A DNA stretch of 62,759 nucleotides, the filler included, from Basidiobolus ranarum (Eukaryota), in the NCBI GenBank assembly GCA_040143965.1. It is 44 parts of 44 records of this genome, joined end to end, with 100 filler letters (N's around TTAATTAATTAA, not from the genome) between each part and the next. Parts side by side here need not be neighbours in the genome. Positions count along the whole stretch, not along the records: positions 14,328 to 15,658 come from JASJQH010012389.1; 43 more parts are not named here. One strand, given 5' to 3'. The position numbers were made by a program, and so were the translations under genes. Positions 1,435 to 51,364 of the stretch are shown one piece after another. The number at the start of each line of letters is the position of its first letter. Position 1 is the first letter of the stretch. The notes beneath the pieces were generated by a model. It had not been told where the DNA came from. It did not search any database and saw nothing but the letters and a program-made list of their open reading frames with translations.

Positions 1435-2612
1435 AGAGAGTCCCAACACAAAGTTTTGAAGTGCTGCAATGGCAGAGGAGTATCAGTCACTCATAGATAA
1501 CCAAACTTGGACTTTGGTTAAGTGACCTGATGGCCAAATATCATTTGGATTCAAATGGGTGTTTAAAGTTAAACAGCAAGCTGATGGATCTGAAGAGAGA
1601 TATAAAGCCAGACTTGTGGCTAAAGGATACTCTCAAATGGAAGGAGTGGACTACAATCAAACTTTTGCTCCTGTAGCTAGTTTTAATTCCATCAGAACTG
1701 TACTAGCAATAGCAGCAAAACACAGCTGAAAAATCCATCAAATGGATGTTAAAACTGCTTTTTTGAATGGGGACTTGGAAGCAGATATATTCAACAATCA
1801 ACCAGATGGCTTTGTAGATCCTGAGCGCCCTGAGGACATGTTTAAGCTACAAAAATCACTGTATGGACTTAAACAATCACCCAATGCCTGGTACACTAAG
1901 ATAGATACATACTTGGAATCACTTGATTTCCAAAAGAGTATGGTGGATTTTGGGATCTACTTTAAGACAGTTATGGAGAGTAATGTGATACTTGCCTTTT
2001 ATGTAGATGATCTGATTATAGCTACCAATAATGATCAAGATGTCAGAAACACCAAAAGAGATCTATCAGTCTAATTCAAGACAACTGATTTAGGTGAACT
2101 TATGTATCTTAGGTCTGCAGATCCATACAGATATATTGAGTAAATCTATCACTCTGAATCAATCTAAATACATCTCAGACATTCTCAGATAATACAGAAT
2201 GAAGAATTGTAAGCCAGTAGCAACTCCCATGGATCCAGGTGTGAAACTAGTCAAAAATCCCATCAAAAATGTTGAAAATCAGCCATATATGGCTCAAAAT
2301 ATGTCATTTGAAAGCCCTGAGTTCCCTTATCAGTATATGGTAGGTAGTGTGATCTGTGCTATGACTGGAACCCAACCAGATATCTCTTTTGCAGTGGGAG
2401 TAGTCAGCCAACATGTGCAAAACCCAGGATCTGAGCATTATGCAGCAGTTAAGCGGATTTTCAGATATTTGAAGGGGACAATTGATCTGGGATTAAGATA
2501 CATATATTCTTATGAGAATAAGGATCTAATTGGGTTTAGTGATGCAGATTGAGGATGTGATATTGAGGACAGAAGATCTATCACCGGATATACCCTTCTC
2601 TATAGTGAAGCA
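1435..2612 (+). pseudogene. Ty1/copia pol fragment (RT and start of RNase H), interrupted by reversed LTR family B at 2613-2768
   Basis: [32 protein letters not shown] and FSDAD motifs with stops and frameshifts. Confidence 0.95.
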
Positions 2613-2868
2613 TATTGGGAAAATATGGGCTGTTTGGAGGAACTTTAGAAAAGTGGGGTTGTGAATAGCTTTGTGAGATAATTGTTTATTGTCCAGAAAT
2701 AAAGCATTTATACTTTTTGGTGGAAATACAGAAAACTAACACTGGGGTTGTGTTAAGAACATCTGTGGNNNNNNNNNNNNNNNNNNNNNNNNNNNNNNNN
2801 NNNNNNNNNNNNTTAATTAATTAANNNNNNNNNNNNNNNNNNNNNNNNNNNNNNNNNNNNNNNNNNNN

Positions 2869-4201
2869 AATGGAAGGAGTGGACTACAATGAAACTTTTG
2901 CTCCTGTAGCAAAGTTTAATTCCATCAGAACCGTACTAGCAGTAGCAGCAAAACACAGCTTAAAAATCCATCAAATGGATGTTAAAACTGCTTTTTTGAA
3001 TGGGGACTTGGAAGAGGATATATTCATGGATCAACCAGATGGTTTTGTGGATCCTGAGCACCCTGAGGACATGTGTAAGCTACCAAGATCACTTAGGGAC
3101 TTAAACAATCACCCAGGGCCTGGTACACTAAGATAGACTCATACTAGCAGTCACTTGATTTCCAAAAGAGTACAGTGGATTTTGGGATCTACTTTAAGAC
3201 AGATAAGGACAGTAAGGTGATACTTGCCTTATATGTAGATGATCTGTTTATAGCTACCAATAATGATGAAGCTCTCAGGAACACCAAAAGAGATCTATCT
3301 GTTCAATTTAAGATGACCAATTTTGGTAAACTTATGTATTTTTTAGGTCTGCAGATCCATACAGAAATATTGAGCAAATCTATTAATCCGAGTCAGTCTA
3401 AATACATCTCAGACATTCTCAGGCATTACAGGATGAAGAATTTCAAGCCAGCAGCAACTCCCATAGATCCAGGTGTGAAACCGGTCAAAAATCCCATCAA
3501 AAATAATGTAAATAGGCCAAAATGGCTCAAAACATGTCATTTGAAAGCCCTGAGTTCCCTTATCAATCTATGGTAGGTAAGTTGATCTATGCCAAGACTG
3601 GAACCCAACCAGATAGCTCTTTTACAGTGGGAGTAGTCAGCCAACATGTGCAAAATCCAGGATCTGAACATTATGCAGCAGTTGAGTGGATTTCCAGATA
3701 TTTGAAGGGGACAATTGATCTGGGATTAAGATACATATATTCCTATGAAAATCAGGATCTAGTTAGGTTTAGTGATGCAGATTGGGGATGTGATATTAAG
3801 GACAGAAGATCTATCACTGGATATATCTTTCTCTATAGTAAAGCAGCCATATCTTGGAATAGCAAGAATCAACTCACCATAGCACTTTTAACAACTGAAG
3901 CAGAATACATGGCAGCATCACATACAGCAAAGGAGGCTATTGGGTTAACAAAACTGTTCAAAGACTTGGGCATTATTCAAAGTTCACCCACCATAATTTT
4001 CAAGCATAATCAAAGTTGTATTTATTTAGCTAAGAATCCCAAATTTCATGCTAGAAGTAAGCACATTGACATTCAACATCACTTTGTTATGGAAGCTATT
4101 GAGAATAAGCATGTCCAACTACAGTACTGTCCAACTGAGGACATGATTGCTGACATCCTTACCAAACCATTACCCAAGCCAAAATTTGAAGAATTAAGAT
4201 T
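2869..4201 (+). pseudogene. Ty1/copia pol fragment (RT-RNase H)
   Basis: ETFAPVAK, QMDVKTAFLNG, LYVDDL, SDADWG, TEAEYMA, SKHIDI, ADILTKPL; frameshifted. Confidence 0.96.
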
Positions 4202-8819: not shown

Positions 8820-10615
8820 GCCAAAGTTAAATTTCAAGCTTCATTCCATATGTATTTAACCATGTACAATATTTACAAAAGAGCACCTGATTCTAAATAA
8901 TACTAAGCATATCTTAGACATCAATAATAAACATTTCGTTTTAACACCACCAGGAAACTTCTATTAAAATGATGGCCTATCCTATATTTCATACAGTAAA
9001 AATGATTGCTACTTTGACTTTCCATGGACCCAACAAGGGAATCTTGTAATCAGAGCGTTCAGACAAGACTGATACCATCCAGTTTCCAAGCATCAGTCAC
9101 TCACTTCACAATACTGAAACAAGTATTCACCACTTTTCCTCATAAGCATGATAACCCCAATGATGCCCAAGTTAGCAACAGTTAAGGTATTCGTGCCAAA
9201 TGTCAATGGCCCCAGAGTTAAAACTGAAGGAGTGCTAAAGACAATTAATCAATACGAGCTCATATCCTCATGCTTATTATAGCAAAGCATCAATATTTCA
9301 GCAAAGTGAAAGAATATTTTTCAACTGATTTAAGTAGTAAGATTTTTAATGAATCATTGACGGTTTTGAACACCTAATTGGTTTGTACTCTTACACTGGA
9401 AGCTAGTCAACTCTAATACAACTTTAGTACCCAACATTGGAAGCTCCATACTCCCGAAATTGCTCCGTAAGCAGACAAATATCCCGTTCACATCAGTAGT
9501 GTAAACTTAATTCTTCACCTCCAACACCGATCCTTGCTTCTTGGCATTGTTTTATAATAAATATTAGAAATCATACCATTCTCCTATAATTAAAAGACTA
9601 AAAATATACCCTAGATGAGGAGTGACATCAATGTTTCATATGTACCCACCATTTTTAGAACTTATTTATAAACTCTAAAGCAATTAATTCAATAAAACTT
9701 GTTTGAAAATATTTTACTTTACTTTATCAACTAAAGAAATTTCATGGTGAAGAAATATTTTTGCAACTTCACAAGCACCTAACACATGAATTTAAATTTT
9801 AAGCTGTTTGTCAACATTGCCATTGTTGGATAATTAATCTTTATTCAACATCATAGTTAACTTTAGTTATGATACATATATCAGAAACAGAAAGCAACGT
9901 ATCTATAGCCCCTATATTCTAAATAGGAATANNNNNNNNNNNNNNNNNNNNNNNNNNNNNNNNNNNNNNNNNNNNTTAATTAATTAANNNNNNNNNNNNN
10001 NNNNNNNNNNNNNNNNNNNNNNNNNNNNNNNTTTGAGATATTCAGGAGTTTGTGTAATAAGATATAATAGATAAGTGGGGGTAATAAGACATACTTGTTA
10101 TATAGATATAGAGATATTCCTATTTAGAATATAGGGGCTATAAATATGTTGCTTTCTGTTTCTGATATATGTATCATAACTAAAGTTAACTATGATGTTG
10201 AATAAAGATTAATTATCCAACAATTTTCCAGCTCATGATTAAAGATGAGCTTCAAAAAGGAAAATGTATATGACATAAGGGTATGAATGTTAGCTACAAG
10301 TGACATGAGTTGTGGAACATATTGTTGCTTCTACCCAATACCAGCAATTGAGCTTTTGACTGATATAATATTTAGAAGTGATTCCATAAAGAGAAGAGAA
10401 AAAGTGAATTGACTTCAGAATATGGGGCTTCTAGCACTGGTTTGAAAAATCTGTATATCTGAGAACTTTTAAGTTGGTAAAAATATTCTAAGTAAATTCC
10501 AATTGAGAATAATGGATAATATCTTAGTTCAATATAAGATAACTAAGTACTAAGCTATATATGACTATATAGGTGCTTAGGCAATGCCAATCTCAGCAAT
10601 ATCATGGTTGGAACA

Positions 10616-11363
10616 TTGCCAGATATTGCATATTCTGTGGGAGTTAAGTGCCAGTATTTTCAAAATTATGAATCTGATCAAATCATAGCAGTTAAGTGAC
10701 TTCTCAGATAGTTGAAACATACTGTGGATCTGTGCTTAAAATACACATATTCTGGATCAAACTTTGATTTGATGGGATATTCAGATGCACATTGAAGAAG
10801 AGATATTGAAGACAGGAGATCTACAACAGGATACTTATTTCTTTGCTGTAAAGGAGCTATTTCTAGGAATTCAAAGAGGCAATCTACCATAGCACTTTCA
10901 ACAACAGAAACAGAGTATATGGCTGCCTGTGAAGCAATAAAAGAAGCAATATGGTTTAGAAAACTCTTAGCAAATTTAGGCTATTCACAAAATTCACCAA
11001 CTACAACATGTCAAGATAATCAAAGTTGTATCAAATTAGCTAAAAATCCCATGTTTTGCAGTAGAAGCAAACATATGGATATTAGACATCACTTCATTAG
11101 AGAGACCATACAGAATAAGTATATTGACTTAACTTATTGTTCTACCAAAGATATGATTGTTGATATATCAACCAGGCCATTGGCTAGACAGAAATTTGAG
11201 AAATTTAGTCCTCTCTTAGGATTAGTTTATATGGCCATTTAGTTGAGGGAGAGTGTTGAAATTAGCATTGCCTAAACACCTATATAGTCATATATAGCTT
11301 AGTACTTAGTTATCTTATATTGAACTAAGATATTATCCTTTATTCTCAATTGGAATATACTTG
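10616..11363 (+). mobile_element. Copia 3' end: RNase H remnant, PPT (11245-11253), LTR family C starting TGTTGAAATTAGC at 11254
   Basis: EYMAACEAIKEAIW, SKHMDIRHHFIRE; purine tract abutting TG. Confidence 0.92.
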
Positions 11364-11463
11364 NNNNNNNNNNNNNNNNNNNNNNNNNNNNNNNNNNNNN
11401 NNNNNNNTTAATTAATTAANNNNNNNNNNNNNNNNNNNNNNNNNNNNNNNNNNNNNNNNNNNN

Positions 11464-12795
11464 GTATTTTTGCAAAAATTGCTGGATATCAAATAAAGCT
11501 TGCCAAATTTGAGGATCAATATTTTAATTTGTATGAATACCATTAAGATACCATCAAGAAACCACTGTCATACCATCAAAATCCCTGGCACAATGCAAGC
11601 CAATAATATTTTGACGGTTCTCTGATAGTTTTGCTATTTTGGAGGGTGGAACTGATCTGGATCAAATTGATTTTGTTTTTGTTAGGGGCAATATGCTTTA
11701 CCAGCAAACAAACAGGCAAAAAATTGTCAAACATCTGAAATTTTGAATATCACTGATACTTGGCAAATGGCTGACTCTTGTTACCATCCACAATGAGAAT
11801 ATGATATTTTATTATGGCAAAGTTCCATAAAGAATTTAGCCAACATATACTTGACTTGCAGTCAACAAATGTCCTGCCACAAGTAGATGTGTATTGCTTG
11901 AATTGATTACGCCATGGCTAAACAATAATATTATGTATCCCAATCCATCTCACCAAGAAGTCTGTCTGGCAGCATTCCTGGAAATACTCTCAGATAATTG
12001 CATCAACAAATTAGTCCAAATTTTAAAGGTACTTACTCTGTATCCATATATTGAGCTTTGATGCTGTTATTGTGCTCAAATAATGTGAAAAGCTGTGAGC
12101 ACACTGAAAAGAGCCCCTTGTTGGAAAATTAATATACTCTGGAGTTTCCGTAACCCATTGCAATACATCTATCATTGATTTTGTTGAAACATTGTTAATC
12201 AGATTAGCATAAGGTATACTGACAATTTCACATGGAGCATCATTTCACTGCATGTGTGCTCCATTTGGAACTGCCAGAATGTATAGCAAGGGCCTATATT
12301 CCCAAATTATTGAGAAAGATGCAACCAGGAATGTATTGAATACTGGCATAGATTCAGTCTGTCTTTCTTAAACCTGCAACAAAGTCTATCATATCCAATT
12401 ACAAATCTTTGCACAGTTACCCTGACAAAAATAAAATTGATTTGATTGGGATTGGATCCACTGTACAAAAGAGCAAAACCATCAGAGAACCATAACAATT
12501 TTGGTGGCTTGCATTCTGCCAGGAATTTTGATGGTGTGATGGCAGTTCTTGATGGTATTTTTATGGTATTCATGCATGTTACAATATTGATACTCAAATT
12601 TGGCATGTGTTATTCAATATCCAGCAATTTTTGCAAAATATAATTTTCAAATAGCAAATTACTGGGTTTACTGCTGTAGGAATTTGAATTAATATGTATG
12701 CCTTTATTTAGATATTTTAGGCTTTGTATTCCAGCCATAATGAGAATCAAAAAATACAAGAATCTCATTGTGTTTAGTCTCTACATATGCACATA
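11464..12795. mobile_element. Nested CMC/EnSpm fragments: two terminus-A copies plus transposase 3' region
   Basis: ...TTTTTGTTAGGG near 11687, CCCTGACAAAAAT at 12420; decayed GPCYTFWQF.ME on the minus strand. Confidence 0.8.
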
Positions 12796-14327: not shown

Positions 14328-14438
14328 ACACAGCCAGATATTGCATATTCTGTGGGAGTTATGTGCCAATATCTTCAAAATTATGGATCTGATCAAATCA
14401 TAGCAGTTAAGTGGATTTTCAGATATTTGAAAGGTACT
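14328..14438 (+). pseudogene. Copia RT C-terminal fragment abutting the viral D5 gene
   Basis: QPDIAYSVGV...AVKWIFRYLKGT; same family as 10616-10725. Confidence 0.9.
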
Positions 14439-14439
14439 C

Positions 14440-15063
14440 GTATTATTCTTACAGGAACCCAATCCAGAAGAAAAAATAAAAGGAGGTATAGTAAAAGAAT
14501 TAACAGGGAACGATAGAATTTATGTCAGGAATTTGTTTAAGAGTCCTAGATCTATACAAGTTAAGGGTAAAATTGTCCTGGTTTGTAATAATATTTTATC
14601 GATTCCGGATATGGATTCAGCACTAAGGCAAAGAACAATAGTTATCCCATTTATTAGTACATTTGTTCGAGATAAACTTTGTTTACAAGATAATGTATAT
14701 CAAATGAACTCTAATGTTGAAACTATACTTGAAGAAAGTCAAGAAGCTTTTTTATATATACTAACCCAAGAATATGCAACATTTAAACAAAAAGGACTAG
14801 AAATACCTGAATTTATGAACAAAGTAACACAAGAGTATCTAGATGCTTACAATTATCTGTTAACATTCAAGAAAAAATATGTAATATATTCTGAAGGATC
14901 TATATATAATATACATGAGGCATACAAAATGCTTAAGGATTGATTTACAACAAATAATCCCTGTAGAAAGATACCAACTATGGAAGAATTTTCCAAGGTT
15001 CTCAATACAAATTCTAATGGACAATTAGTTGAATGCAGAGTAACATACCAGTTTGGAGGATAA
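14440..15063 (+). pseudogene. D5-like SF3 primase-helicase C-terminal half (NCLDV-like), one internal TGA at 14941
   Basis: Walker B LFLQEP, KELTGNDRIYVRNLF (B'), KIVLVCN (motif C), ALRQRTIVIPF (Arg-finger region); frame reads on through the TGA to TAA at 15061-15063. Confidence 0.88.
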
Positions 15064-15066
15064 TTT

Positions 15067-15354
15067 TTAAAAATTATATGTTTTTTTACATGATATACAA
15101 TAACACATCCATGTTGATCCCTTGTTGGCTGATCAAAGTTGAAATTCTCTAATTATAATAGTTGTTTTATCACAATATTTGCATGGTGTATTACTTTTTA
15201 TTTTATTTACATCTTTATCATCTGCGTATCTACCAAAAATGCTATTTATCATTGAATCGAGATTAAATTGGTCCCCAATCAATAGCTTGTCTAGTATTTG
15301 TACATTTCTATTGGAAATTATTTTTTTTAGGTAGGCTAACATATATTCATCCAT
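15067..15354 (-). pseudogene. Short TFIIS-like zinc-ribbon transcription elongation factor (about 95 aa, virus-like)
   Basis: Read through the TGA at 15133: PCKYC...REFQL*SANKGSTWMCYCISCKK, matching CxxC...QxRSADE(G/P)xT...CxxC. Confidence 0.85.
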
Positions 15355-15542
15355 GAATTGGAAAGATGATTAGCAAGAATTTTACAATGATAATTCTGAT
15401 CTAATAAAGACAGACTCAAAATTCTTTCCTTATCTGATGATATTTTTGTCCCTAGTCCATCAAAAGTGTTTAAAATATTTTGAATGGTATCTTTAACAGA
15501 AATCCAAGTAGTTGATGTTGGTCAATCTCCATATTCATCTAG
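15353..15542 (+). pseudogene. Uracil-DNA glycosylase N-terminal part, cut by a copia LTR
   Basis: Manual translation MNWKDD*QEFY.../...FVPSPSKVFKIF*MVSLTEIQVVDVGQSPYSS resembles family-1 UDG VF..F....VKVVIxGQDPY. Confidence 0.75.
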
Positions 15543-15658
15543 TGTCAAAATTAGCATTGCCTAAACACCTATATAGTCATATATAGCTTAGTACTTAGTT
15601 ATCTTATAATTCACTAAGATATTATCAATTATTCTGAATTGGAATTTACTTAGAATAT
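15543..15658 (+). mobile_element. Copia LTR family C inserted into the UDG gene
   Basis: TGTCAAAATTAGCATTGCCTAAACACC matches the LTR starts at 11254 and 47454. Confidence 0.92.
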
Positions 15659-22533: not shown

Positions 22534-22606
22534 CAACCCTACCGGGGGTCGAACCCGGGACTTTCCGCTTAGGAGGCGGACGCTCTATCCACTGAGCTAC
22601 AGGGCC
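22534..22606 (-). tRNA. tRNA-Arg(CCT), intronless
   Basis: GGCCCTG TA GCTC AGTGGATA GAGC G TCCGC CTCCTAA GCGGA AAGTC CCGGG TTCGACC CCCGG TAGGGTT G, followed by a T-rich tract. Confidence 0.93.
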
Positions 22607-28628: not shown

Positions 28629-29470
28629 TTTAAATCTAAATTAAAACTTAATTAAAAACCAAATTCGAATCTAAATTTAAAACTTTTAAAAATAATTTCG
28701 TAAAATATTATTTAGAACTTGATTTAAATCTAAATTAGAACTTAATTAGAAACCAAATTCGAATCTAAATTTAAAACTTTTTAAAATTATTTCGCAAAAT
28801 ATTTTTTTTAAACCCTAATTATGATCTAACTTAGAACTCTCTCACAGACTTGATTTAAAACTTTTTAAATTTATTTCGCAAAATATCTTTTTTAAACCCT
28901 AATTATAATCTAACTTAGAACTCTCTCACAAACCCAATTTAAAACTTTCTAAATTTATTTCGCAACAAGTTTATTTTAGAACCCAATTAGAATCTAACTT
29001 AGAACTTAATTTAAAACTCTCTCACAGACTAGATTTAAAACTTTTTTAAAATTATTTCGCAAAATATCTCTTTTAAACCCTAACTATGATCTAAATTAAA
29101 ACTTAATTAGAAACCAAATTCGGATCTTAATTTAAAACTTTTTTAAAACTCTCTCACAGACCAGATTTAAAACTTTTTAAAATTATTTCGCAAAATATCT
29201 CTTTTAAACCCTAACTATGATCTAAATTAAAACTTAATTAGAAACCAAATTCGGATCTTAATTTAAAACTTTTTAAAATTATTTCGCAACAAACTTTAAT
29301 TAGAACCTAATTAGGAGCTTAAATGTAAATCTAATTCGAGACCAAATTCGAATCTTAATTTAAATCTTCTTCGCAAAATATCTCCTTTAAACCCTGATTA
29401 AATTCCAACTTAAAACTTAATTTAAAACTCTCTCACAAACCCGATTTAAAACTTTCTAAATTTATTTTAT
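28629..29470. repeat. Complex AT-rich modular repeat array
   Basis: Shuffled modules TTTCGCAAAATA, AAACCCTAA, CTCTCTCACA, CCAAATTCG(A/G)ATCT, ATTTAAAACTTT. Confidence 0.9.
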
Positions 29471-29685
29471 ACAAAACTAAATATTTCAGATTAAATACAT
29501 TATTCACATAATTGTATCCCACCATTTTAAATATAAACATGGTATTACTACAAAAATACTTCAGATTAACTATTATTACGACGAATACATCTACTTACAA
29601 AAATCGTCGAGGCTAAAAAAATTATTAATTACATTAAACTATATACAAATTTATAAAACATCCAAATGTCTTAACAACGTTAATC

Positions 29686-29957
29686 TTATATCCCAATAGA
29701 CCTTTTTACTTTCCCCACTAAACTATAATATGTATAAGGTATTAGATAATCTTTAACCAATGGAACAACACCTTCTGAATTCGCAACTAATGTATAAATC
29801 TCATTGGATATTATATCCAAATGGTCAACAGGTAACATATTACGAGTAGCAACGTAAATATTCTCTTTTGAAATTTTTGTGTTAGAAACAGATTCTCCCA
29901 CTTTAGATGTCGGTTTGTCTTCATGAACATACTTTCCCGAAAAAGCAAAAACTTGTT
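29686..29957 (-). CDS. C-terminus of an unknown AT-rich ORF, open to the contig edge
   Basis: QVFAFSGKYVHEDKPTSKVGESVSN...LVGKVKRSIGI*; no stop up to the linker. Confidence 0.45.
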
Positions 29958-41484: not shown

Positions 41485-42395
41485 GGTTATGAGCCCCAAG
41501 CTTGCACTCTCTGTAATGTCTACTTCTCAAATTTATGGAACTTTTCCCTCTTCTGAAAAATTGGATGGAACCAATTATCAAGTTTGGAAAACTAAAATGA
41601 AAATGCTGCTGCAAGAAAAAGAACTTTGGGACACTGTTGTAGGAGAAGAAAACAATGCAAAACTATCTGAAATCAAAGTTTTACTCCAGGTTAAAGAAGA
41701 ACAAAGTGCCTTTAACACAATTTGTCTTAATGTTAAAGACAAATTGCCAATTCAATGTTCAAGAGCTAAAACTGCCACAAAGGTATGGAAATCCTTCAAA
41801 GACACCTACAAAACAAGTTCTGCTGCCTACAAGATGTTTCTAACAAGACAATTCTTCAACTTAAAGAAGAAGCCAGGAGATGACATTAAATCACTAATTA
41901 ATAGAGTCACTATTTTAGTGGATGAAATGGAGTGCATCGGAGTATCTACTACTGATCAAGATATCATAGTTACAGTCCTGAATAGCCTGCCACACAAGCT
42001 TCAGAGCCTAGTAATGGCTCTAGAATTAAGAACTGAAAATTTGATCTTAAATTATGTATTTGGCAGACTTCTGGATGAAGATTTACACAAATCAGGATCC
42101 AACCACAAGAATGAAGAAAATGGTATAATAGGCTATGGGAAACCTTCCTACAAAGATCTAAAGCACTTTAAGAAGAAAATTAACGCATTCTGTGATTACT
42201 GTAAAAGAACTGGCCATTTAAGCAAAGATTGCTTTAAAGAATTGCAAAAGAAGAAAAACACACTGAATCTGGAAATGTGGTTGCAACAGAAGATCACTTG
42301 TTCATATCAGCTCTATCAATGACTACCAACAAGGATTCTCAGATGTGTTATATTAATTCTGGAGCTTCCCAAAATTTCATAAATGAAAAACATTG
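41485..42395 (+). mobile_element. Copia PBS plus gag (UBN2-like, CCHC knuckle) and decayed protease start
   Basis: AACA-GGTTATGAGCCC; CDYCKRTGHLSKDC; YINSGAS. Confidence 0.93.
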
Positions 42396-48955: not shown

Positions 48956-50190
48956 GGGTTAGGTTTGGGAGCCTGTTCAAAATGGCTTCATGAATTAGAG
49001 AAACTGATGATTTTCACCAATTGATTTATTGAGCTGAAAGTTGCCATTTATAGTTTTATCAAGAGGTAACTAAAGTAATGTGCAAAATTTGTTTAGGAAG
49101 GTCTGAGACCTTCCAAGCTGGTAAACATATTCTACTTAAATTCTGATTGCAAATAACTAGTAATATCTTGGTGAAGTACATGATGTCTAAATACTAAGCT
49201 ATATATGTCTATATTGGTGTTTAGGCAATGCTAATTTCAATAATGTTTAGCTCATATTGCTAAACTCAATCTAATAGAATTATACCTAGATACAGGAGTA
49301 AAAATTTCTGTATCATCTATTTCTGGTTTTTGGGAATAACCTTAGGCTACCAGTCTAGCCTTGTACCTTTCTATATGGCCATCAAATTTGTATTTAACTT
49401 CACACATGCATTGGCAGCCAATTGATTTTGTATTATCTGGCAATGGCAAGTTATCTAAAGTACAAGCTTGATAATTAATCAAAGCCTAGAACTTGTCAGC
49501 AATTGCAAATCTTCAGATTTCTTTGTGATGCCCATTCAGGCCCTCTTTTACATTCTAGGGTTCATGTATTTGATCTGTGCAGGCATAGGCCCTGTCTTGG
49601 GAGTTATTAATTAGTAAGCTAGGCTGTTTCTGATCCAATTTGATCTCCCCTTTTAGGATAGAGATTGTACAGCTTCTGACATTGTGTTGGACACTACAGT
49701 AGGCTAAGTTCTGGTTGAAGAGTCCACAGGAATGCTACTTTCTTCATTGTTTTAGCTTGAAGCAAGTTGAATGATTGAGTGAGACAAAATTAATTTTTTT
49801 CCTATGCTGGGATCATTTTTACCCTAATAGAAATTTGAGGATTGTTATTGTAAGAAAACTGTCACAATTTTAATCCATTTGGGTTCAACCAATTACTTAC
49901 CGTCATAAAATCATCATGTTATATTTGATTTTAATCAATNNNNNNNNNNNNNNNNNNNNNNNNNNNNNNNNNNNNNNNNNNNNTTAATTAATTAANNNNN
50001 NNNNNNNNNNNNNNNNNNNNNNNNNNNNNNNNNNNNNNNACATAATTCACATATATATATAATATATGTTCCGATTTTCAGCTAAGTGATATTTGACTAA
50101 ATAATGTTGACTAACTAATATGTGATATATGAAATAGTTAGGTGTATAAAAGTAGGGATAACATATATGATAAAGACAATAAACTTCAAC

Positions 50191-50653
50191 AGCCATTACC
50201 CCCATTAGTGTAAATGCTAGCTCTCCAACTTTATCAAGAGGTATAGAAAATTCATCAATAGAAAAAATTTTGTTGTATATACAAAAATTTTCAGAAGATT
50301 CTGACAAAAGAAACCAAAAAACTTTAGAGGTTCTCAATCAGACCCTACTTGAACTCTTGAATTCTATATCTAATCAAGACAAATTGTTCACCAAGTCTAT
50401 TGATGAAATGGTTTCTGTGATGAAAGACGCCAACATTTCTGAACGTACCAAGAACCAATTGACAGAACAAATTATCAAACTTCTAGATGAAAAAATTTAC
50501 AAAAAAGGCTTAGTATTAATAATAACTCCAAAAGGAGGTAAAATGCAACCAGTAGATAATTTAGATGATTTAGAACAGTATACTAAAGATAAAAATGTGT
50601 ACGTTACTGGCAGTATTTCAGATATAACTAAGGGACTTTTCCTAGTTGACTGA
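50191..50653 (+). CDS. Orphan intronless AT-rich ORF (putatively viral), 5'-truncated by reversed LTR B (50040-50190)
   Basis: Frame open from the LTR junction (AITPISVNAS...LLYIQKF...GLFLVD*); convergent with UDG, 10 nt between the stops. Confidence 0.6.
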
Positions 50654-50663
50654 TTTTTAAAAA

Positions 50664-51140
50664 TTATTTATGCCAAGATATAGGAAGTTTGTTTATTTTA
50701 GTTAGCATCTGGTTGATTTTAACAAATATATTACTATGAGAGAATGTTTTGTTTAAAAATCTAGATACAAGATGATGAACATTTATTATATGAGTAACCG
50801 GCAATATATCTGCTAATGCCCAACTATCTCTTCCCATTAAACTGTATACAACATTAGGTTGATTACATTCTATATATTTAATTACATTTCTAGTAAACAT
50901 TTCCCAAAAAATTTTATGATTGTTAGAAAACTTGCAGTTAGATATTCCATGAGTCCATGATACATTTATCAAAAAAACTCCTTGTCTCATCCAACTATAA
51001 AAAGTGTCATATGGATTAGGAGGAGGTAAATCAAACTTGTATGCAATTTTGTCAACAATCACTTGAGCAGTTTTAGGAATAGATTGACATTTGTGTGATG
51101 GCATTATCAGAATTCCACTAGCAAAAAAATTATTTGTAAA
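50664..51140 (-). CDS. Uracil-DNA glycosylase central and C-terminal part (virus-like), 5'-fused to copia gag
   Basis: FASGI, SWMRQGVFLINVSWT, HKIFWEMFTRNVIKYI, VVYSLMG, HHLVSR, FSHSNIFVKINQML match family-1 UDG motifs. Confidence 0.85.
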   Translation of the reverse strand, partial: FTNNFFASGILIMPSHKCQSIPKTAQVIVDKIAYKFDLPPPNPYDTFYSWMRQGVFLINVSWTHGISNCKFSNNHKIFWEMFTRNVIKYIECNQPNVVYSLMGRDSWALADILPVTHIINVHHLVSRFLNKTFSHSNIFVKINQMLTKINKLPISWHK

Positions 51141-51364
51141 ACTTGTGTGGCAGGCTATTCAGGACTGTAACTATGATATCTTATTCAGTGGTAGGTTCTC
51201 CAATGCATTCCATTTCATCCACTAAAATAATGACTCTATTAATTAGTGATTTGATGTCTTCTCCTGGCTTCATCTTTAAGTTAAAGAATTGTCTTCTTAG
51301 AAACATCTTGTTGGCAGCAGAACTTGTTTGGTAGGTGTCTTACAAGGCTTTCCATACCTTCTTG
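51141..51364 (-). pseudogene. Copia gag fragment
   Basis: Homologous to about 41780-41999. Confidence 0.88.

Follow-up and report, generated by a model that had tools for sequence, protein, structure and literature searches.

Do three short genes crowded onto a single contig of the fungus Basidiobolus ranarum represent the remains of a giant virus, and if so, from which lineage do they come and in what state have they been left? The contig in question occupies positions 14328–15658 of the DNA analysed here (hereafter the window), a stretch of 62,759 bases from GenBank assembly GCA_040143965.1, and encodes parts of a D5-type primase-helicase, a TFIIS-type zinc-ribbon protein and a uracil-DNA glycosylase (UDG) between pieces of retrotransposons with long terminal repeats (LTRs). 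Our analysis indicates that this is probably a non-functional fossil of a Nucleocytoviricota-like virus, belonging to the fundsalphavirus group of early-diverging fungi and interrupted by copia elements.

Layout of the focal contig

The window consists of 44 contigs of 1323–1334 bp each, ordered from the longest to the shortest and separated by 43 identical spacers (44 N, TTAATTAATTAA, 44 N). Since these spacers are artificial and stand between unrelated contigs, adjacency across them is meaningless, and nothing outside 14328–15658 can be regarded as a neighbour of the viral genes. The focal relic genes are confined to this one contig of 1331 bp, which is laid out as follows:

14328 to ~14437, plus strand: internal pol fragment of a copia-type LTR retrotransposon, 110 nt, recognised by nucleotide identity to another pol copy
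14437–15063, plus strand: D5-type SF3 primase-helicase, last 209 codons, from Walker B to the natural stop, recognised by database match
15067–15354, minus strand: TFIIS-type zinc-ribbon pseudogene, 95 codons, recognised by alignment with 11 orthologues
15353–15542, plus strand: UDG, first ~60 codons, recognised by matches to related viral UDGs and to UDGs in PDB
15543–15658, plus strand: 5′ terminus of a copia-type LTR (TG...), 116 nt, running to the contig end, recognised by alignment of five copies

The D5 and TFIIS stop codons are only 3 nt apart, the start codons of TFIIS and UDG share 2 nt, and the GC content of the viral part is 28.5%, with the 44 contigs ranging from 23.9 to 40.9%. A preliminary description of this locus had proposed an endogenized cluster of very AT-rich, tightly packed giant-virus-like genes, comprising the C-terminal half of a D5 helicase, a TFIIS gene of ~95 aa and a UDG N-terminus with the motif VGQSPY, joined at both ends to copia sequence. 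The packing, the base composition and, within the contig, the copia sequence on either side are all borne out by this layout, and the three gene assignments by the comparisons that follow.

Identity of the three genes

Protein searches with the D5 fragment yielded 31 proteins at E ≤ 1e-3 among 734 candidates of 369–2000 aa. The best match, P0001, is a protein of 703 aa that is intact and encoded on a 5.4-kb contig of a public read assembly; to it the fragment is 82% identical with 99% of its length covered (E = 2.3e-109), aligning to residues ~495–703. The fragment opens at the Walker B motif (LVLFLQEP); Walker A is absent and the N-terminal ~494 codons are gone. Its closest named relative is a protein of Basidiobolus ranarum itself, P0002, with 48% identity. 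The PHROG family “DNA primase” is matched at 1.8e-15, the Protein Atlas assigns the D5_N/DUF5906 family only, and in Pfam DUF5906 alone is matched, below threshold (17.6 bits, cut-off 27.6). The reading frame is interrupted by a TGA at 14941–14943, in an alignment column that is tryptophan in at least 90% of 26 sequences.

The TFIIS-type open reading frame (ORF) can be aligned over its entire length with 11 orthologous ORFs (88–103 aa) on related contigs, and comparison with the profile of these orthologues gave an hhalign probability of 98% (E = 1.5e-13). All four cysteines of the CxxC-x24-CxxC pattern are present with the right spacing. The acidic RSADE loop is lost: its R, D and E are invariant in 11 of 11 relatives, and the focal copy carries an in-frame TGA (15133–15135) at the R and reads N-K for D-E. 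Judged by these alignments, the focal gene is a genuine but defunct member of the TFIIS family. A word-based protein search with the ORF returned one candidate and no scored match, and phmmer against PDB found only two unrelated phage proteins (E 0.5–0.8).

The UDG scrap contains a TAG (15371–15373), a change of frame at ~15400–15430 and a TGA (15481–15483), and its last residues are GQSPYSS. When it was searched against PDB up to E = 10, 19 of 19 matches fell on the GQDPY loop of family-1 UDGs, with E values of 0.5–1.5. Among UDGs of the related viral loci described below, it matches those of L089 (tblastn 1.1e-7, 47% identity over 38 aa) and L001 (pairwise 5e-7, 42% identity over 33 aa). The GQSPY motif (QSPY encoded at 15523–15534) has a serine at the position of the catalytic aspartate and thus departs from the GQDPY signature of family-1 UDGs (PF03167). 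The same QSPY loop is found in 12 of the 14 UDG ORFs of the clade (L001, L081, L083, L084, L086, L087, L089, L090 and L097–L100), and on this comparison VGQSPY is the lineage's own version of the loop. A serine in place of the catalytic aspartate may mean that the glycosylase chemistry of the clade's UDG is altered or lost.

Relatives of the D5 fragment

A scan of IMG/VR identified 81 D5 relatives in 190 candidate stretches, 80 of which were kept; 54 of these 80 contigs are named “GVMAG”, for giant virus metagenome-assembled genome. At least 262 D5 relatives were found in a scan of metagenomes. The clade to which we refer throughout comprises 22 loci, namely the best 20 of these at least 262 metagenome relatives (L081–L100) plus L001 and L002.

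Two D5 trees were calculated, one with FastTree from 124 rows (out of 194; the other 70 were either under 200 aa long or at least 90% identical to a row that was retained) and a quick IQ-TREE from 60 picked rows, 36 of the clade and 24 others. In both trees the focal fragment groups with P0001 (support 100), and P0002 of Basidiobolus ranarum joins this pair (support 99–100). The resulting group is nested in the 22-locus clade (IQ-TREE branch support 100), which itself lies among the IMG/VR contigs, with a mycobacteriophage as outgroup. Apart from one contig, these trees contain no named reference giant virus, and the giant-virus placement comes from the contigs named GVMAG. The phylogeny that the preliminary description had put forward as a check on its viral reading thus came out in favour of it, with D5 among GVMAG-named contigs and phage and prokaryotic homologues far away.

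Primase-helicases of the D5_N/SF3 type are common in phages, and JGI labels relatives of the fragment as “P4 family phage/plasmid primase”, which would suit an origin from a phage, a plasmid, a bacterium, a polinton-like virus or a virophage. Matches to phages have only 22–24% identity, however: 59 phage records were matched, the best with 23.6% identity and 56 bits. Among 185,579 prokaryotic species genomes only two loci were found. One of these, L161, lies on an 8.4-kb contig of an Opitutia metagenome-assembled genome (MAG); its D5 shares at least 90% identity with the D5 of the metagenome contig L121, which groups with the GVMAG contigs, and L161 is probably a viral contig that was mis-binned into this MAG. 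On the weak phage matches, the two prokaryotic loci and the placement in the trees, we reject a phage or prokaryotic origin. Moreover, contigs of the relatives encode Rpb1, Rpb2, Rpb5, TFIIS, a capping enzyme and PolB. We regard this group of origins, taken together with the idea, treated below, of an organism that reads TGA as tryptophan and retains intact genes, as exceedingly improbable.

Gene order and gene content of the clade

When the TFIIS and UDG scraps were first compared by tblastn with the 80 IMG/VR loci, neither had a match; the neighbouring genes surfaced with the metagenome scan. A TFIIS ORF of 88–111 aa lies directly upstream of D5 and on the same strand in 14 of the 22 clade loci. 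UDG stands head to head with TFIIS in eight of the 22 and in tandem, slightly further upstream, in four. In L098 the start codons of UDG and TFIIS overlap by 2 nt, as they do in the focal contig.

Contigs of the clade also encode PolB, Rpb1 in pieces, Rpb2, Rpb5, an mRNA capping enzyme, a methyltransferase, helicases of the SNF2/ResIII (D6-D11) type, XPG/FEN1, the small subunit of ribonucleotide reductase, an ATP-dependent ligase, MutS with HNH, GNAT and DUF5757. The link to core replication and transcription functions is made by TFIIS in the focal contig itself, and by PolB, RNA polymerase and capping enzyme in contigs of relatives only. With adjacent D5 and TFIIS genes in most loci and this gene content in the clade, the relic of a large DNA virus that had been suspected at this locus is well founded.

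Two contigs of the clade merit a description of their own. A 51.7-kb IMG/VR contig (L001/L165/L166/L181/L182) carries MutS with HNH, an ATP-dependent ligase, two SNF2-type helicases, PolB, a split Rpb1, Rpb2, Rpb5 and a lysozyme with a peptidoglycan-binding domain. On L097, a 20-kb metagenome contig, ORFs with a HET (heterokaryon incompatibility) domain at 2204–3298 and 11142–12647 are interleaved with UDG, TFIIS and D5. HET domains are mostly fungal, and their presence hints either at an association of the clade with fungi or at a fungal genome as the source of L097 itself.

A second contig with a complementary UDG half

When 673 ORFs of the 22 related loci were compared with the window by tblastn, four sites only were matched, the three focal genes and a region at 50673–51125. 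The latter lies on a second contig (50040–51364) with the following features:

50040–50191, minus strand: 5′ terminus of a second LTR family (TGTTGAAG...), abutting viral DNA, recognised by alignment of four copies
50192–50653, plus strand: orphan ORF of ~154–156 codons, truncated at its 5′ side and convergent with the UDG
50664–51138, minus strand: UDG, C-terminal ~157 codons with an open frame up to the natural stop, recognised by tblastn
51139–51364, minus strand: internal fragment of a copia gag gene ending abruptly at 51139 (PF14223, 1.6e-10, profile positions 72–121 of 172)

The UDG of this contig is matched by 13 clade ORFs, among them the UDG of L081 (tblastn E 1.4e-23, 31% identity). 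At the C-terminal, HPSP-type histidine loop the relatives retain the histidine (..VPHPVAR..), and the second contig reads ..VHHLVSR... The gag fragment is 91.4% identical over 222 nt to a gag at 41780–42001.

The focal UDG ends with GQSPYSS plus two bases, and the UDG of the second contig starts with one base followed by TNNFFASG; at the matching point the clade UDGs have QSPY, then 4–12 residues, then ACG. As aligned, the two halves meet at one point and in phase, within a boundary uncertainty of ~2 nt. The simplest reading of these sequences would be a single UDG split by a copia piece that spans from the 5′ end of an LTR into gag, and it is this reading that would link the two contigs.

The only match of the orphan ORF among 1.84 billion representatives is a 100% identical piece of 77 aa. 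It has no Pfam family above noise, and none of the UDG-adjacent ORFs in L089 and L090 match it; possibly it is a fourth viral gene.

Retrotransposon flanks and junctions

The left flank of the focal genes is 90.6% identical over 106 nt to a pol copy at 10618–10723. This identity is lost after ..GAAAGGTAC, at ~14437, where the D5 homology sets in, with an overlap of at most 3 nt. We take the left flank to be copia-type from its motifs, and from the copia-type gag in sister contigs; the pol fragment has no match to a Pfam family. On the contig of the other copy, the pol ORF ends in a stop that is followed by a polypurine tract and then the LTR. The left break thus falls at an arbitrary internal point of pol, as a deletion, the capture of a fragment or a chimera would produce.

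On the right, the LTR begins exactly at 15543 (TG), and five copies in the window align from identical first bases. Two of these are preceded by a pol stop and a polypurine tract; the three others, including the focal one, have unrelated upstream flanks. A shared start with differing flanks is characteristic of the end of a transposon that borders on target DNA. The second LTR family behaves in the same manner, with four copies that start from the same TG and have four different upstream flanks, one of which is a stop plus polypurine tract. At the level of contigs, the viral DNA is therefore joined to retrotransposon sequence on both sides, with exact LTR termini at 15543 and 50191.

Retrotransposons are also nested in one another in the window: on the contig at 10032–11363 an inverted LTR copy stops exactly at the pol of another copia, and a pol stop followed by a polypurine tract and the beginning of a 3′ LTR lies on the same contig.

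The arrangement on both relic contigs, copia coding sequence followed by viral DNA and by an LTR start, has the order and orientation of a single element, and the distance from the pol position of the left break to the LTR start is ~530 nt in an intact copy. Template switching or recombination could therefore have placed a viral fragment inside a copia element, with pol or gag on one side and the 3′ LTR on the other, and retrotransposition may then have spread copies of it through the genome; a role of this kind was raised by Gong et al., who suggested that retrotransposons may aid the proliferation of endogenous fundsalphaviruses (Virus Evolution 6:veaa008, PMC7017919). However, the polypurine tract of the intact copies is missing before both LTR starts, so that such a chimera would have been unable to replicate further. 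Moreover, the two UDG halves break at the same point, as expected from one interruption by copia and a coincidence if the viral DNA were cargo. We consider carriage inside a copia element quite unlikely.

Decay of the viral genes

Three TGA and one TAG codon lie in frame within the focal viral part, together with one frameshift, and two of the three genes are truncated (D5 at its 5′ side and UDG at its 3′ side). With a D5 that lacks its first 70% including Walker A, a TFIIS that is stopped inside its zinc ribbon and a fragmented UDG, nothing functional is left.

The in-frame TGA codons occur in all three genes, and the one in D5 stands at a conserved tryptophan, as would be expected in an organism that reads TGA as tryptophan. 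Of the three, this is the only one at a tryptophan; the TGA in TFIIS is at an invariant R and that in UDG at a position with R, K, T, I or Y in relatives. Since just one of the three TGA codons is at tryptophan, and the TAG and the frameshift persist under any code, an alternative code does not rescue the genes.

For CpG, the observed/expected ratio is 0.31 in the focal viral part and 0.20 in its counterpart on the second contig; the remainder of the window has 0.22, and the 22 related loci span 0.39 to 1.15. The relic is thus depleted of CpG to near the value of the other contigs and below all 22 relatives, which indicates that it has acquired the dinucleotide signature of the host. Across all contigs the CpG ratio of 0.22 goes along with a TpG/CpA excess of 1.30, and this combination suggests CpG methylation in the source organism.

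These marks of decay also bear on an artificial origin. The viral DNA could come from a free virus or contaminant in the sample that misassembly or chimeric reads joined to copia: with 1.3 kb the contigs are short and belong to an unplaced pile, two of the junctions are at arbitrary internal copia positions with an overlap of at most 3 nt, and an intact D5 of 703 aa with 82% identity is present in a public read assembly. Yet four stop codons and a frameshift within 1.1 kb, the host-like CpG depletion, the two junctions exactly at LTR termini, the complementary UDG halves on two independent contigs and flanks that are 90–95% identical to other contigs of the same assembly all argue for endogenous DNA, and we judge contamination or misassembly to be highly unlikely.

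A model for the origin of the relic

We infer the following order of events from end states that can be read in the contigs. First, a viral piece in which D5 converged with a head-to-head TFIIS and UDG pair would have entered eukaryotic nuclear DNA rich in LTR retrotransposons. Copia-type elements would then have inserted, one of them splitting the UDG right after the GQSPY loop; the outcome of this step is seen at the level of contigs. Subsequently, deletions or incomplete insertions would have left only the 5′ parts of these elements. Finally, the mutation regime of the host would have led to the CpG loss, stop codons, frameshift and substitutions in the catalytic loop of TFIIS that the present sequence displays. 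On both relic contigs the retrotransposon pieces begin exactly at an LTR 5′ end and break off at an arbitrary internal position with no target sequence lost, a footprint that incomplete plus-strand cDNA would leave if it were captured at DNA breaks instead of being integrated; such capture is possible, though unlikely.

Several observations weigh against a fossil of an integrated fundsalphavirus-like virus. Taken alone, two of the focal pieces fall short of Pfam: the TFIIS ORF scores 20.7 bits against PF01096 (cut-off 21), and the UDG scrap has no match. The orthologous TFIIS ORFs clearly pass (36–61 bits), as do the intact clade UDGs (31.7–35.8 bits), with both UDG pieces of the window below the cut-off. 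The Pfam searches that had been suggested for this locus therefore support the TFIIS and UDG families through the orthologues and not through the focal copies. The junctions at ~14437 and 51139 are not transposon ends, so that deletions, captured cDNA or chimeras are possible there, and all junctions as assembled rest on contigs of 1.3 kb.

Capsid, A32 ATPase and VLTF3 are not represented by a Pfam family among the matches listed for ten related loci. In the 51.7-kb L001 contig, the ORFs of at least 90 aa taken from end to end contain no Pfam capsid or packaging family, and several ORFs of 300–570 aa are unmatched. One Pfam scan of the clade gives 25 of 40 families; another covers 64 of 100 listed ORFs and is without D5, UDG, one TFIIS ORF, nine L001 ORFs (eight of which were scanned at near-identical coordinates) and all 15 ORFs of L100. 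With no capsid or packaging family among these matches, the term “virus” refers here to replication and transcription genes only. Furthermore, membership in the fundsalphaviruses is a match of gene content and of one Basidiobolus relative, and not the outcome of a joint tree with the published sequences.

The gene order also deviates, as D5 is convergent with an adjacent TFIIS in none of the 22 clade loci. The focal order corresponds to an inversion of D5 relative to the TFIIS and UDG pair of the clade. The gap of 3 nt from stop to stop suggests that this order would be native to a sub-lineage and not a result of scrambling after integration. Because an intact D5 with 82% identity is present in public reads and because the gene order is absent from 22 relatives, the relic could represent a sub-lineage of its own, one that perhaps still circulates, within a giant-virus-like clade associated with fungi, a clade with an unusual UDG and with a capsid that goes unrecognised or is absent; we hold this to be possible, though unlikely.

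Comparison with known systems

Gong, Zhang and Han (2020, Virus Evolution 6:veaa008, PMC7017919) described endogenous “fundsalphaviruses” from 14 fungi, two of them species of Basidiobolus, that represent six phyla. Genes common to these elements are D5, a D6/D11-like SNF2 helicase, a SAM methyltransferase, RPB2, RPB5 and a split RPB1 flanking PolB; the elements carry stop codons and frameshifts, retrotransposons lie close by, and sequences from moss resembling nucleocytoplasmic large DNA viruses (NCLDVs) are nested in the group (PMC7017919). The relic described here shares with them the NCLDV-like character, the stop codons and frameshifts, the retrotransposon sequence nearby and the tie to Basidiobolus. 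The full shared gene set is found across the 51.7-kb contig, L081, L090 and other loci of the clade, and the focal contig has D5 only. As in the clade, capsid and A32 signals are unclear in the published elements (PMC7017919). In contrast, the published survey used PolB as its sole probe, with neither TFIIS nor UDG named in the main text (PMC7017919), and the focal relic is merely 1.1 kb long (2 kb with the second contig) and has no PolB. As gene set and Basidiobolus relative match the fundsalphaviruses, the lineage has already been described, and the suggestion of an undescribed one made in the preliminary description is not upheld. A literature search for the name “fundsalphavirus” returned no paper beyond that of Gong et al.

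Two other cases of giant-virus DNA in fungi are comparable to some extent. The 1.5-Mb element of Rhizophagus irregularis 4401 (Zhao et al. 2023, PMC10640383) is likewise a Nucleocytoviricota-like insertion in a fungal chromosome without a recognisable major capsid protein. It is portrayed as Asfarviridae-like, recent and transposon-poor, with a GC content above that of the host and without D5 (PMC10640383). The focal relic, in contrast, is tiny and interrupted by transposons, has a GC content below that of its surroundings and is largely made up of D5. The Mycodnaviridae (PMC13533422) are also giant-virus genes or genomes inside fungal genomes; they differ in being defined by homologues of the major capsid protein, which occur almost only in zoosporic fungi and none of which is seen in the focal clade.

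Outside fungi, a comparable neighbourhood exists in poxviruses, where the genes for D4 (UDG) and D5 (primase-helicase) adjoin. The focal contig resembles this arrangement of UDG and D5 in a large DNA virus of the cytoplasmic type, but has the small TFIIS gene in between and GQSPY in its UDG loop. By analogy with poxvirus D4, the serine-loop UDG of the clade might have a structural role in the replisome in place of one in base excision.

Other features of the window

The contig with the lowest GC content (23.9%) is that at 28629–29957, which has no match to ORFs of the viral clade. The only Rfam match in the window is a tRNA gene at 22534–22606 on the minus strand (61.9 bits). Nine other long ORFs of the window were compared with Pfam, with one copia gag and otherwise no family as the result. 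The named matches of a gypsy pol fragment in the window are mixed and come from frogs, the chytrid Batrachochytrium, the mucoralean fungus Cunninghamella and a fern, with 39–64% identity.

Implications for giant-virus-like elements of early-diverging fungi

The focal stretch is a real, small and dead example of a kind of element that is already described. To the record of giant-virus-like fossils in early-diverging fungi it adds one host genome, a TFIIS of 95 aa and a UDG of the QSPY type. In the clade from which it stems, UDG, TFIIS and D5 form a conserved block. As the fragment is dead and small, its value is that of a marker: it indicates that such a virus was once encountered by the source organism or its ancestors, and it supplies probes with which to look for the remaining parts of the element and for the intact relative in public reads.

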